64,000 nucleotides of DNA from Eledone cirrhosa (lineage: Eukaryota). The DNA is taken from assembly GCA_964016885.1 (NCBI GenBank), contig OZ024741.1, positions 407,464,001 to 407,528,000 on the forward strand. The letters are read 5' to 3'. Shown one piece after another: positions 595 to 62,682 of the stretch. The notes under the pieces were generated by a model. It was not told where the DNA came from and made no database searches. It was given only the letters and a program-made list of their open reading frames with translations. The translations under genes were made by a program, and so were the position numbers. The stretch's first letter is position 1. The number at the start of each line of letters is the position of its first letter.

Positions 595-639
595 AATATT
601 GAACTAGTTTCGATGTTGTTACATCTCATCAGCAATATT
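595..639 (-). ncRNA. Type I hammerhead ribozyme (minimal)
   Basis: Minus strand: AAUAUUG-CUGAUGA-GAUGU(AACA)ACAUC-GAAAC-UA-GUU^CAAUAUU. Perfect stems I and II, palindromic stem III ACUAGU. Confidence 0.9.
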
Positions 640-766
640 TACCTATCTTCCGGCCTCTCTAGAGAATCGTAAAAGCACATATCGTTATATGCTTTTTCTA
701 TGAAAATTAGTAGTGGGCAGACTAATTTGCATAGAGCATGAGTACGTACCGGTTCAACGGAGACGA

Positions 767-977
767 TAAAAACAAATAACGAAACGAAATTAAATTTCGT
801 TTCGTTTGTAACTCACTTTTGTATGACTGACGCTTAAACAATTAAGTTTAAAATGTACATCCACACATGTATTCATATGTGGATGTACATTTTTAACTTA
901 ATTGTTTAAGCGTCAGCCATACAAAAGTGAGTTACAAACGAAACGAAATTTAATTTCGTTTCGTTATTTGTTTTTAT
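767..977. repeat. ~210-bp near-perfect palindrome next to (TA)n
   Basis: aaaaacaaataacgaaacg...ccacacatgt / catatgtgg...cgtttcgttatttgttttt; centre ~870. Confidence 0.9.
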
Positions 978-1357
978 ATATATATATATATATATATATA
1001 TATATATATATATATATATATATATTATATATATATATATATATATATATATATATATATATATATATATATATATATATATATATATATATATATATAT
1101 ACATACATATATATATATATATATTATATATATATATATATATATATATATATATATATATATATATATATATATATATATATATATATATATATATATA
1201 TATATATATATATATATATATATATATATATATATATATACATACATATATATATATATATATATATTATATATATATATATATATATATATATATATAT
1301 ATATATATATATAATAAATAACAGGAGGTTGGACTGGTGTAAGTCCTTGAAAGGTTT

Positions 1358-1420
1358 AATTTACTATGATCATTTCAATGACCGAGTTCAATATGAATCC
1401 GATGACATCATCAGGTAATT
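1358..1420 (-). ncRNA. Hammerhead ribozyme-like motif
   Basis: Minus strand: AAUUAC-CUGAUGA-(imperfect stem II)-GAAAU-GAUC-AUA^GUAAAUU. Confidence 0.65.
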
Positions 1421-1655
1421 CAAAATATAACGAAGGGATATAACAGATAAAAATCCATGGTGCTGAAAATCAGAGACAGGAGGGCGACCGGCAATTTAGC
1501 AGCTTCTACCTCTGTCGGCTGCCCTCAATATATATATATATATATATATACATATATATATATATATATACTTATACATTTATATATATATATATATATA
1601 TATATATATATATATATATATATATATATATATATATATATATATATATATATAT

Positions 1656-58042: not shown

Positions 58043-60204
58043 TCTAGGGCGGCTAAAATTCCCGAGATCCATGGACGAGTTCTCTCCAGCGGTCTCTGTC
58101 ACTCATTATCGCTGCCATGTCCTGCGTCTCCAACAGACCAGTGTCTGTCCTTAGGGCATCAACATACGTTAACCCTGGTCTTCCTCTTCCAGTGTGTCCA
58201 TGTAGGGGCTCCCACAGGAGTACTGAGTGCATTGTCAACTCTGGATGTCAGTGAGGATGTTCAACTAACCTCAGTCTCCTCTGTGTCACTTTTGAGCTGA
58301 CTTTTGGGAGGCTCCCTTACAGCTCTGAGTTTTTCATCCTCAGTGTATACTGATTAATGTTCAGAGCCATCCTCAGCATTCTCGTGTAGCACCCATCCAC
58401 CATCTGAGTGAGTTTCCTGGTCAGTGTCCAAGTCTCAGAGCCGTACAGCAGCACAGACTCCACTACAGCAATGAAGAGGCGGATTTTCAGGTATTTAAGA
58501 AATGTCTGACTTCCACACCGATTTCAAGCTGTGGGACGCCGCCCAGGCTTTGCTCTTCCTCTCAACCACATCATCTTCTGTATTCCCAATCTTTGCTCCC
58601 AAATACAGGAAGTCCTCGACCAATTCTAGCGGCTTGTCGCCTACATTAGTGATCCCCTCTGGCTTCTCAACATTCTCTACCAGATATTTTGTTTTAATCT
58701 CATTCATTTTCAGCCCCACACTCATCGACACAGTCTCAACCTCCTGCATCAAATCCTCTGCCTCCTTCATTGTATTTGTCACCAAAACTATGTCGTCGGC
58801 AAATTCAGCATCTGATATCTTTTTCGCCATAACTCTTCTGCTCTGAGCCGGTGCTACAGTAAAGCCAGATTCCTGGTATTTCTCCAGTACAAGGCGCATA
58901 CAATAGTCCAATACGATGATAAAAAGGTAGGGAGCCAATGTATCTCCCTGGAGCACTCCAGCCAGTATCTCAAAGAACTCTGTCATCCCATCAGGTGTAA
59001 TGACTTGGGCTTTGGTGTTGGTGTAGAGCAGTGATATCAGGTCCACTATCTTCTTGGGGATTCCATAAGCCTGTAAGATCTTCATCAGGCAGTGACGGTC
59101 CACAGAATCAAAGGCCTTCCTAAAGTCAATGAAAACCATGACCGCAGGAAGGCACTTTTCTCTAGCTCCCCCTAATATCCTCCTCAGCATCAGTATGTAA
59201 CTGGTGGTTGATCTTCCCTCTCTGAAGCCGTTCTGGATGTCCCTGATTTTCTTCTCCATGTCAGGCTTGATCCTGTTAATATTTATCCTGTTGAGAGTCT
59301 TTGCCACAAGTGACGTCAGTGAGATCCCCCTGTAGTTGTTGGTGTTAGAGAGATCTCCCTTCTTTGGCACTGGGACGATGTTACTGATCCTCCACTGATT
59401 CGGGGCAACTCCTTTCTCCAGTGCCTGGTTACAGAACCCCAGGATGATATCATCAAAATCACACCTCTTCATCATCTCTGAAGCCACTCCATCTTCTCCA
59501 TCAGTCTTGCCCTCCTTGATCTTCTTCTTGGCTCTCTGAAGCTCCTCTCTGGTGAAGGGCTCTGTCTCAATATCCAGTTCTTCAAACAGCCGCCTGATCT
59601 CCCCAGTGCTCTGGGCTGTGGAGGGTGGCTCACCTAGTAGGGTCCTAATATGTTCTAGCAATTTCCTCTTCCTATCCTCGGGCCCTGTTCCCTGAATCTG
59701 ACTCGAACACCTTCTCTTCCTCCCTGTGATCTCGTTGATGATCATCCAGCTCCCCTTACATCCAGACCTGTCAACCGCTCTCTCCACACTTCCGATCTTC
59801 TCTATCAGTGCCTTCTCTCTGGCCTCAGTGTAAGCGGTACAGAGTTCTTCCCTCATCATCTCCACAATCTCCATCCTCTCCTCTGTAGGATCAGCATAGA
59901 ATTGGTCCTTGGCAGCTTTCAGGTGTTCTCTGGCTGCACACACTTTTGGGTTTGCAGAACTGACGTACTTCCTTTTGTTCTTTCTCTTCGCCATCAGGGT
60001 CTCACTTGCTTCCGCCACTGCATTGGTGAAGTACCCGTCCCTCCTCGTCACACTCTCCTCAGTCCATCCAATCCCTCTCTCCTCAGTCTCTCACAGAGAG
60101 CACTGAACCTGTTCCTCACTTCCACTGTGAACTTCTGTAGTTTATCATCTTCCTTGAAAGCTCCCCAGTCACAGATTGCTCTCCGGGGCTGAGCCCTGCT
60201 TTCG
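58043..60204 (-). mobile_element. RTE LINE, 3' part with RT
   Basis: VPVPKKGDLS..NNYRGISL, QNGFREGRST, FIDFRKAFDSV, GVLQGDTLAPYLF, EFADDI. Confidence 0.95.
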
Positions 60205-61318
60205 TGTCATAACTCCCAGGTCATAACCCTTAGTTGTCATAACTCCTAGGTCATATCTCTTAGTTGTAATAACTCCCAGATCTGCTCTGGCCTGGAGTCG
60301 TAGTACCTGTTAAGGCCCCATTCATGGGTTAAATAACTACCTTATTCGAGTGGTTCCGGTACGATATTGTCAGCTATTGAAAATAAATATGGAGAGTCTA
60401 TCTAACAGCACTAGGGTTGGACCCTCTAATTACACTGTCAAGGAGCAGTCTGGTCGTTATGACTCTGCTGGCTTAGAGCCATGGGGAGGGCCAGTGGATG
60501 ATGGATCAGCTGTCTCTGAGACAAATATAAAGAATGCAGTTTTGTCCTGCAGAAGAGCCATCAAAATGGGCACTTTGAATGTGAGGACTATTCGGACGCT
60601 GGAGAAGAGAGAGGAGTTGGGATATCTGTTCGAGGAGAGTGGTATACAGATACTTGCGATCCAAGAACACAGGATCCTACACGATGAGTCCGTGAGGAGT
60701 GTGATGATTGGGAAGATGAGCCAGCTCATCACCACATCGGCAGTGAGGAACATGACCAATGCTGCAGTGTGAGGAGTGGGTTTTGTTTTCAGCACAAAAA
60801 CCAGTCTATTGGTGAGGGAAATAATACCTGTCTCTCCGCGAGTGTTGACGGTGACCTTCAATGGAAACCCAAGACTGACAGTCATCTCAGCCTATAGTCC
60901 AACCGAGGGAGACAGTGATGTCAGTGCGGAAGAGTTCCATGAGGAGGTGTGTAGAGCTGTCAACGCCACACAAGCACACAACATCCTGCTTGTTTTGGAG
61001 GACTTCAATGCACATCTGAGTAAGGAGGGCAGTGAAGATCCTTGCTGGTACTCCTTAACAACACCAAACAAAATGGGAGACTACTGAGAGACACCCTGCT
61101 GGAGGCGCAGTTGATAGCGACCAACCTAAGGTTTAGGAAGAATCCGGGGAAGATGTGGACCTACATCTCAGATATGCATCTGTCCAAGTCCCAGATTCAT
61201 TTCATTCTGGTGTGGAAAAAGTGGCGGAATAGTGTTCTGAACACAGAACCATACAACTATTTCAGTACACTAGGTAGGGACCACCGGCTTGTTATGAGTG
61301 AGGTCCGGGTGAGCTTAA
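60205..61318 (+). mobile_element. Inverted 5' part of the same RTE LINE (5' UTR + APE endonuclease)
   Basis: GTLNVRT, ILAIQEHR, GVGF, ISAYSPT, DFNAH, DHRLV. Confidence 0.92.
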
Positions 61319-61639
61319 TATATATATATATATATATATATATATATATATATATATATATATCATGAAACATGCCTATAGAATCACCAGATAAAATATA
61401 TACCGTTTCCTCTCCCAATTACCATAATTAACCATATAAAAAATCAATTAGACCAAGCTATAAGAATAAAGGCTCTTATGAAGAAATCTCCGACAAATAA
61501 CCGAAGGCAGCCCTTCGTGGCGGTTGCGACGGTGTATTTATCGAGTATTTCGACAGCATGTATAAATCGACCAGATATACAGTCAATTAAACAGAATAAG
61601 GTGTAAAATAAACTAGAAGAAAAAGTGAACATATTTAGT

Positions 61640-61719
61640 TACCTCTACCATGGTTTCGTCCGCATTTTAAGATATCCGATAACATTGGAAATCTAGAGTT
61701 TCGGACTCTTCAGGAGTTA
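61640..61719 (-). ncRNA. HHR in solo pLTR-like element 61365-61920
   Basis: UAACUC-CUGAAGA-GUCCG...CGGAC-GAAAC-CAUG-GUA^GAGGUA. Confidence 0.85.
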
Positions 61720-62292
61720 GCTCAAATTTAGACAATTAATTTTCCAAAGTGATCGCGCCAAGAATACATTCAAAAATGGCTAAGAATCGTGACGTGGCAG
61801 CGGTCAAGTTAGAAAGGATGTGATTAGTTGCTTACGGCTTGTAGGCTTTTTGCTAGAAAGCGCAGCCCAATACAGCCAAAATTGTATCTCAACCTAACGG
61901 GAGATTATTACATATAAAGGTTTACATATATATATATATATATATATATATATATATATATATATATATATATATATATATATATATATATATAAAGTCA
62001 TAGATATATATGTGTTTTGCAACGAGTCACTTTGTGGCTCAATGAAGAATTAATAAATTAAATAATCAGAGCTATATATCATAAAACATGCCTATAGAAT
62101 CACCAGATAAAATATATACCGTTTCCTCTCCCTATATATATATATATATATATATATATATATATATATATATATATATATATATATATATATATATATA
62201 TATATATATATAGATAGATAGATAGATAGATAGATATATAGATAGATAGATAGATAAATATACACAGGTGTGTATGATTGTGTATAGAAGAT

Positions 62293-62682
62293 TATATTAA
62301 TAAGAGGAATTCCAACTTTGTCTGATTTACTCGTTTTATTCACAATCCTTTAAAATTTATAATGGTATTATAATGAAATAGTATGGTAGAATATTAAATG
62401 TTAAGTGTTAATTGAACAAGTACTTTCATGCTTTCGCAATCTTCAGGTTCATAATGTGTGGTGACAGTCAAGTTTGCAATTATTAACAGTTGAAAATTGC
62501 AAACTTGACTGTCACCACACATTAGGAACCTGAAGATTGCGAAAGCCTGAAAGTACTCGTTCAATTAACACTTAACATTTAATATTCTACCATACTATTT
62601 CATTATAATACCATTATAAATTTTAAAGGATTGTGAATAAAACGAGTAAATCAGACAAAGTTGGAATTCCTCTTATTAATAT
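62293..62682. repeat. ~390-bp palindrome with two minimal HHRs (62526-62562 +, 62414-62450 -)
   Basis: GAAC-CUGAAGA-uuGC(GAAA)GCcu-GAAAG-UA-CUC^GUUC. Confidence 0.88.

Follow-up and report, generated by a model that had tools for sequence, protein, structure and literature searches.

The hammerhead-like motifs crowded into a 64-kb stretch of the Eledone cirrhosa genome (assembly GCA_964016885.1, 2,996 Mb; contig OZ024741.1, positions 407,464,001 to 407,528,000; hereafter the window) appear to owe their number to transposable elements. The window is, in our reading, packed with 3'-end fragments of Penelope-like elements (PLEs) alongside tandem repeats that probably descend from them. Their terminal repeats carry type-I hammerhead motifs that are predicted from their sequences to self-cleave as dimers by way of a palindromic stem III. 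We put the probability of this at about 85%. An initial annotation of the same DNA had listed 18 such motifs in about 15 independent families, and the cause absent from it would very probably be PLEs together with retrozyme-like arrays.

Motifs were counted with a generic type-I descriptor of our own (core, stem II span of 8-120 nt, GAAA, self-complementary stem III, H, stem I; the span is stem II plus its loop) and with a relaxed form that permits bulges and variant cores at a score of at least 12. The descriptor was drawn up after the motifs were known, so that absolute counts hinge on the chosen thresholds, while comparisons with the null do not. Controls were the reversed window and 60 local and 40 global dinucleotide shuffles. 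The generic form gave 17 matches in 10 clusters, against none in the reversed window and means of 0.05 and 0.025 in the local and global shuffles. The relaxed form gave 21 (19 CUGANGA and two CCGANGA), against none reversed and 0.07 and 0.0 shuffled, so that the comparison with dinucleotide shuffles suggested in the initial annotation came out on its side (fewer than 0.1 shuffled matches). Two tandem arrays supply eight of the 21, and inverted duplicates supply more. Since the palindrome is built into the descriptor, the scan was repeated blind to stem III pairing over the window and a genome sample of 98 evenly spaced 10-kb loci (980 kb, from C1-C24, with C25-C28 and small contigs left out). 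Self-complementary spacers were then found in 44 of 58 matches, compared with none of nine control matches, and an alternative GAAA of a 522-nt array accounts for seven of the 14 non-palindromic cases.

These counts bear directly on whether the motifs are chance matches in AT- and microsatellite-rich DNA, or fold-backs of the assembly. The setting lends itself to such an explanation, as the window has a GC content of 26-38% over most of its length, 109 tandem-repeat rows (chiefly (TA)n) and many perfect inverted repeats. Moreover, the UUGANAA descriptor class lies near background in the sample (16 real matches, five reversed, 4.7 shuffled), for which reason no genome-wide count is offered for it. 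For the C-core motifs, however, chance is refuted, with 65 matches in the 98 loci against none reversed and 0.7 per shuffle, and the inverted pairs of the window, at 67% to 100% identity, have aged as real insertions do. The likelihood left to this explanation is negligible.

A type-I hammerhead-like motif, or what is recognisably a decayed copy of one, sits at each of the 18 sites named initially, the seven stem III palindromes quoted there were all found, and the stem II range given as about 12 to about 100 nt measured 12-101 nt in the window. The core CUGANGA...GAAA...UH is held in type-I order by 19 window matches, with deviations to U4C in two families and to U3-A8 in one. Eleven of the named copies pass the descriptor (595, 1358, 7506, 10980, 16637, 52671, 21886, 26103, 27014, 55651 and 61640). 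The other seven are decayed or variant: 6161 has a broken palindrome (its sister copy at 8136 is intact), 15327 a broken stem II, 18411 a stem I mismatch, 31750 a non-palindromic stem III, as in 21 of the 24 units of its array, and 52260 a U3-A8 core with a weak stem I; 45122 also fails, as does 62526, whose inverted sister at 62446 passes. Families 6161 and 55651 are about 80% identical and were merged, leaving 15, and two more (29605-29695 and 54901-54965) had been missed, for a total of about 17. The count of about 15 families stands. Independence does not: each of the nine families searched is a dispersed repeat with 753-3209 candidates genome-wide (family copy numbers here are first-look candidates from genome-wide searches, not curated copies). 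The stem III ACAAUUGU is common to four families.

Pairing is conserved where the sequence is not. Across 30 diverse members of the commonest superfamily (16637/52671), 94.2% of cells were paired and 14 of 20 pairs showed two-sided change; the covariation score was reached by none of 500 shuffles, and slid controls were 33-54% paired. The core letters were invariant across these members while the stems covaried. Stem III changes from ACAAUUGU to ACAGUUGU to ACAGCUGU between subfamilies. CCGA (U4C) matches numbered 39 + 7 + 7, and one young family with intact elements has the U4C core fixed. Where stem II is long, its predicted fold is an extended hairpin (26103, 27014, 61640, 18411 and 10980), with stem II fold z-scores of -3.6 to -0.2 (-3.56 for 26103); 21886 misfolds as a monomer. 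The minimum-energy fold of the natural 310-nt dimer is a double hammerhead (z -2.99). Subfamilies of the 100-nt family, compared at window positions 26102-26243 and at 4060-4202 of L062 (L-numbers are labels of genomic loci outside the window), differ in having AU-rich or GC-rich pairs at the base of stem II, which stays paired in both. The 18411 motif also has a subfamily with an extra core base (CCGAAGGA), present in L321 and at window positions 26567-26667, alongside the ordinary subfamily.

The likely carriers are PLEs. A reverse transcriptase (RT) fragment from the window retrieved 25,113 first-look candidates genome-wide, many within 832-aa open frames. The open reading frame (ORF) in L115 has RWR and DKT motifs, a CxCX5C linker, and CxxC and CxH motifs, with no CCHH; L102 has RWK. 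Judged by these motifs against PMC8557442, the main ORF type would belong to the Hydra clade, with a (TA)n target. An intact Hydra-type element in L148 has 362-bp direct repeats flanking the 832-aa ORF, a U4C hammerhead identical in both repeats and 4,199 nt apart, an inverted copy on the 5' side, and (TA)n after it. The PLE anatomy of an RT and GIY-YIG-type ORF, pseudo-long terminal repeats (pLTRs) and inverted 5' copies is present in L148, L149 and L147. Pfam gave no match to the Hydra-type ORFs and matched the GIY-YIG of another clade, and a homolog search with the PLE proteins returned no named reference proteins among their relatives. Loci L141-L160 (including L148:3711-8271) contain numerous intact Hydra-type PLEs of 832 aa that are nearly identical to one another and frequently stand as divergent inverted pairs, a pattern that suggests very recent activity.

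Six window families lie 0.7-1.7 kb past PLE endonucleases, at a distance that is family-specific, and at least five endonuclease types accompany hammerheads. With clean endonuclease queries the 26103 family was placed 678-950 nt past the endonuclease in 15 of 32 copies. The 6161/55651 family follows a Hydra-type endonuclease in 25 of 70 copies, a share enriched by the choice of intact loci; the 10980 family lies past an endonuclease in three of 27 (at 822-832 nt), the 21886 family in five of 34 (four of them at 1171-1294 nt), and the 29613 family in two of six. The U3-A8 family (52260) lies 950 nt past a Neptune-like endonuclease within the window, and three of seven other endonuclease loci have it about 1.0-1.2 kb downstream; at the remaining four, the retrieved kilobase fell short of, or did not contain, the motif. 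A PLE link for family 27014 was discarded, as the query had contained translated untranslated region (UTR) and clean endonuclease queries gave none in 36. The idea that the long-stem-II motifs are hidden Naiad hammerheads gained no support, as the linkable long-stem families sit past Hydra-type endonucleases in C-terminal position; the searches did not extend to Naiad proteins.

Downstream (TA)n and inverted copies on the 5' side are PLE signatures (PMC8557442), and both recur in the genome sample. Of 63 sampled matches, 52 had a (TA)6 run in the 300 nt downstream of the cut, compared with 26 of 63 upstream and a background of 22%, and 33 of 65 had an inverted copy, 32 of these on the 5' side. 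Most copies are short, and a (TA)n run is about 40-250 nt away. Four families make tandem arrays of 310-660 nt that, by sequence, resemble non-LTR retrozymes, with units of about 310 nt (7506), 522 nt (31750), 522 nt (27014) and 650 nt (61640/45122). The 522-nt array at 30573-43001 has 99%-identical copies on many chromosomes, and its family is mobile even though the ribozyme is probably weak or dead. A 72% relative lies at window positions 120-285.

Extrapolated from the sample, the density of 66 C-core matches per Mb (bootstrap 95% confidence interval 43-91) corresponds to 2.0 x 10^5 genome-wide (1.3-2.7 x 10^5), a count that omits at least one family, that of 54901-54965, with nine copies in the 98 loci. 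The sample holds 21-24 families (Chao2 44-48), and of 80 sampled segments with homology to families of the window, only 38 pass the descriptor. With 21 matches and 12 passing families, against means of 4.2 and 2.7 per 64 kb, the window is a roughly fivefold hotspot (resampling P below 1e-4, a value that ignores the window having been selected for being striking). The adjacent 130 kb, with 10 matches, is near average, and seven of the 12 passing window families recur among matches in the other 1.18 Mb.

The initial annotation had also proposed a very large, under-annotated ribozyme repertoire. The load is indeed large and missed, and the repertoire is so in number, at about 2 x 10^5 motifs, although it consists of a few dozen transposon families at high copy number. 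At its gathering score Rfam reports no hammerhead in the window, nor any in 140 kb (14 loci) that contain 48 descriptor matches. Its sole hammerhead match in the window, at 579-650, scores 36.5 bits for HH9, under the cut-off of 52. The list filtered by E-value only was set aside, being made up of microRNA matches falling on microsatellites and fold-backs. The min-HHR descriptor, re-implemented from the supplement of PMC4209133, recovers none of the 65 sampled matches; relaxing loop II alone still recovers none, stem III alone 17, and both together 52, with at most one match in controls. Of the 65, 12 have a stem II span of at most 17 nt, 44 one of 18-40 nt and nine a longer one. Recovering most of the matches with this descriptor takes relaxation of stem III as well as of loop II, and long stem II, to which their escape had been attributed, is not by itself the reason. 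Since such forms go undetected both by Rfam and by the published minimal descriptor, invertebrate hammerhead counts may be far too low.

A plausible course for this multiplication begins with target-primed reverse transcription, which would start just 3' of the hammerhead and usually abort. Nearly every insertion would thereby deposit a hammerhead, often twice, and in this way a few dozen families could have multiplied to about 2 x 10^5 motifs. Two copies would pair their palindromes and, to judge from the literature, cut unit-length RNA, of 4.2 kb for the element and of 310-660 nt, possibly circularised, for the arrays; abundant retrozyme circles are known from mussel (PMC7229834). Many genomic copies are likely dead.

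A number of observations weigh against PLE-borne, self-cleaving hammerheads. The evenly spaced sample lacked a directional link to PLE coding sequence, with nine of 65 on the same strand upstream against 7, 10 and 9 at the three other positions and a background of about 8% (these queries were contaminated with UTR). Nine of the 15 merged families, including the commonest (16637/52671), and the 54952 family had no consistent PLE ORF link, so that for these the carrier is deduced from architecture. Despite being young and dispersed, the 522-nt array has only three units out of 24 that pass the descriptor, and neither its natural dimer nor that of L041 folds into hammerheads. The 30 aligned rows of the commonest superfamily had been picked by a pairing descriptor, and in the U4C set (seven sequences) covariation was not significant, being equalled in 126 of 500 shuffles. 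Positions 10.1-11.1 were paired in 46 of the 65 matches, only eight of them G-C, and mismatched in 19. Elsewhere, minimal PLE hammerheads cleave poorly (PMC4209133), one of nine Xenopus retrozyme dimers cleaved (bioRxiv 2026.07.22.740005), and an anole PLE hammerhead was protein-dependent and dispensable for insertion in vitro (PMC11167929).

Part of this would be accommodated if the motifs were PLE-derived and mostly non-catalytic, either relics or protein-binding structures whose fold is kept for protein recognition and not for cleavage. The U4C core fixed in young intact elements, the frequent 10.1-11.1 mismatches, a mobile 522-nt family without a palindrome, a pass rate of only 38 of 80 and in vitro insertion unaffected by hammerhead mutants (PMC11167929) would all agree with this. 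It does less well with a core that is invariant in 30 diverse members while the stems covary, or with two-sided changes that keep the palindromes, and the U4C, U3-A8 and U10.1-U11.1 forms have been reported as active natural variants (PMC3088659, PMC4209133). We consider it a serious but rather unlikely explanation. Far less probable is a large set of independent, host-domesticated ribozymes regulating genes. The high local density and the diversity of families (12 pass here, where 64 kb holds 2.7 on average) might suggest such a set, but every family searched was high-copy, its copies show decay, inversion and junctions with (TA)n, and the Pfam scan of 12 window ORFs gave only transposon-type domains above cut-off. 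PLEs and arrays probably derived from them remain the preferred source of the motifs.

Within the window, the first hammerhead (585-650, minus strand) has stem III ACUAGU, a stem II span of 14 nt, G10.1-C11.1 and a predicted cut after 602. The second (1350-1430, minus; stem III AUGAUCAU, span 31 nt) has relatives in L042 and L108. Next comes an inverted 5' copy of a PLE 3' end (2357-2727, minus), with a decayed U4C hammerhead at 2389-2457 and a 94% inverted match to 5890-6250, and then a 5'-truncated, frameshifted Hydra-type PLE ORF (2726-4958, plus) with an RT bearing the DKT motif, the CxCX5C linker and a C-terminal endonuclease, 77% identical to the intact 832-aa element in L148. About 1.2 kb past this endonuclease is a pLTR hammerhead with the U4C core CCGAUGA and a broken palindrome (6150-6219, plus); the element ends in (TA)n at 6393. 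In three contig sets of unrecorded kind, all from a single sample and possibly the source of the assembly (hence non-independent), the palindrome-restoring letter makes up about 99% of the depth at position 6201, and for 6166, the C4 site, no other letter is listed. A second copy of the PLE 3' end (8055-8650, minus) carries an intact U4C hammerhead at 8082-8151. Between the two is the 310-nt retrozyme-like array (6432-8017, both strands; stem III ACGCGU, (TA)n flanks), with minus cores at 6601, 6911 and 7221 and plus cores at 7512 and 7822, all five of which pass.

Three hammerheads with stem III ACAAUUGU follow further on. That at 10972-11100 (plus; span 81 nt) belongs to a family located about 825 nt past a Hydra-type endonuclease, with continuous homology in L230, L227 and L218. 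That at 18400-18515 (minus; span 61 nt) has a U4C core and a further decayed copy at 26567-26667, and that at 21875-22003 (minus; span 78 nt) belongs to a family about 1.2 kb past a Hydra-type endonuclease. The motif at 15320-15380 (minus) is decayed; in its family stem II has 2 bp and stem III 9 nt (ACAAAUUGU). The commonest superfamily (stem III AUAUAUAU/AUAUGUAU) is represented at 16628-16705 (plus), where stem III is shortened to AUAU and no carrier ORF lies within 1.5 kb, and by an inverted pair at 52449-52742 (both strands; cores 52513 minus and 52678 plus). The U3-A8 core variant (UUGAAAA; family stem III ACCGGU) occurs at 18856-18923 (minus), 950 nt past the endonuclease; other copies are at 52240-52310, 52931-52994, 56704-56763 (minus) and 56803-56869 (plus), and include the 52260 site. 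The nearby broken PLE ORF of the other clade (19873-21064, minus), with a CX4CxxC linker and a GIY-YIG domain (Pfam 26.1 bits, cut-off 22.6), is Neptune-like by its motifs.

A Hydra-type endonuclease fragment (24802-25371, plus) has the 26103 hammerhead in its 3' UTR (26097-26246, plus; stem III ACGAUCGU, span 101 nt), and another such fragment is at 27490-27954 (plus; start approximate). The hammerhead at 27005-27102 (minus; ACUAAUUAGU, span 48 nt) is a monomer here and its family makes tandems of about 522 nt elsewhere. At 29605-29695 (plus) a decayed member of the ACCUCUGGU family, with a broken core, lies 1654 nt past an endonuclease and has intact relatives in L031 and L065. The 522-nt tandem repeat (30573-43001, plus) has 24 units, an inverted 62-nt head and one hammerhead-like motif per unit. 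The ACCAUGGU family is present at 61630-61728 (minus; span 49 nt), forming tandems of about 650 nt elsewhere, and as a decayed relative (69% match) at 45115-45210 (minus). The family at 54901-54965 (minus) has a 2-bp stem III with a 2-nt loop and G10.1-C11.1, and a decayed copy at 16236-16300. Two inverted pairs complete the inventory: one with U4C cores, from the superfamily of 6161 (55638-56135, both strands; 55692 minus intact, plus decayed), and one with stem III AGUACU (62401-62575, both strands; span 12 nt), in which 62446 minus passes and the plus copy has a broken stem II.

The long ORFs of the window are fragments of PLEs and of long interspersed nuclear elements (LINEs; RVT_1 at 45586 and 58495). 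Two LINE copies at 45586-49236 and 49535-50735 (both plus), which we take to be of the R2/R4 type, encode an RT with a cysteine motif and a restriction-like endonuclease C-terminal to it, and have (TAA)n ends. A broken LINE with an apurinic/apyrimidinic-type endonuclease (58048-61300, minus) is presumably RTE-like, and 1664-2316 (plus) is a 93% 3' fragment. Fold-back inverted repeats stand beside (TA)n at 769-974, 17343-17603, 51997-52102, 56200-56375, 63027-63270 and 63822-63977; in none of the six was a hammerhead core found, they are likely 3' tails of further PLE families, and several give false microRNA-precursor scores in Rfam. A short interspersed nuclear element-like repeat, unrelated to hammerheads, is at 11984-12198, 13707-13890, 14145-14347 and 51065-51454.

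PLE hammerheads are already known as a class, and their high density here accordingly has an ordinary cause. What is new is the scale, the palindromes of 6-10 nt, stem II up to 115 nt and the fixation of U4C in a young family, although some of these variants may already be in Lunse, Weinberg and Breaker or in the supplement of PMC7229834. One PLE family, young and intact, has the same U4C hammerhead in its two repeats; together with natural dimers that have different palindromes, it offers ready substrates for the question of what PLE hammerheads do. A bolder picture, which we find doubtful as a whole, is that an active Hydra-clade PLE radiation has produced a hammerhead load that ranks among the largest known (at least 2 x 10^5; 120,000 are reported for axolotl, with a ninefold larger genome), that the 6-10-nt palindromes are family-specific pairing codes allowing activation only by their own kind, that catalysis tolerates a 100-nt stem II and a fixed U4C, and that the arrays yield abundant circular RNAs.

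The relationship to known systems was considered in several ways. A literature search, in which subscription papers were thinly covered, found no paper on cephalopod hammerheads beyond PMC8557442, whose supplement includes an octopus family, Hydra-1_Obim. Like the PLE pLTR hammerheads of PMC4209133, the motifs are of type I, have a weak or palindromic helix III, sit in both terminal repeats, occur mostly as single, dispersed copies, fall into many families within one genome, and include pairs on opposite strands and the U3-A8 variant. They differ in that the descriptor of that work (loop II 3-10 nt, GAAANNUH) finds none of the 65, most palindromes measure 6-10 nt, the stem II span can be as long as 115 nt and G10.1-C11.1 is rare. 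The load of about 2 x 10^5 compares with 2,000-9,000 there, a loose comparison as the descriptors differ. The small PLE hammerhead variants of Lunse, Weinberg and Breaker (PMC5785218) are similar, as far as their title and the review PMC6765202 convey, in being PLE-associated and dimer-cleaving with a palindromic stem III.

With the Hydra-clade PLEs of PMC8557442 the elements share RWR/RWK, DKT, the CxCX5C linker, an endonuclease at the C-terminus that bears CxxC and CxH, insertion at (TA)n and hammerheads. Their unit is 4,199 nt with a 362-bp pLTR, whereas Hydra-clade units are generally under 3 kb (typical, not absolute), and they are further set apart by many intact copies, at least five hammerhead-linked endonuclease types and the U4C core. 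The arrays are like non-LTR retrozymes (PMC7229834, bioRxiv 10.64898/2026.07.22.740005) in being non-coding, AT-rich tandems that are highly self-paired, have one type-I hammerhead per unit and coexist with PLEs; unlike these, they have PLE-style inverted 5' heads and (TA)n flanks. Array units of 522-660 nt are longer than the 170-400 nt given in PMC7229834 but fit the 51-972 bp of bioRxiv 10.64898/2026.07.22.740005.

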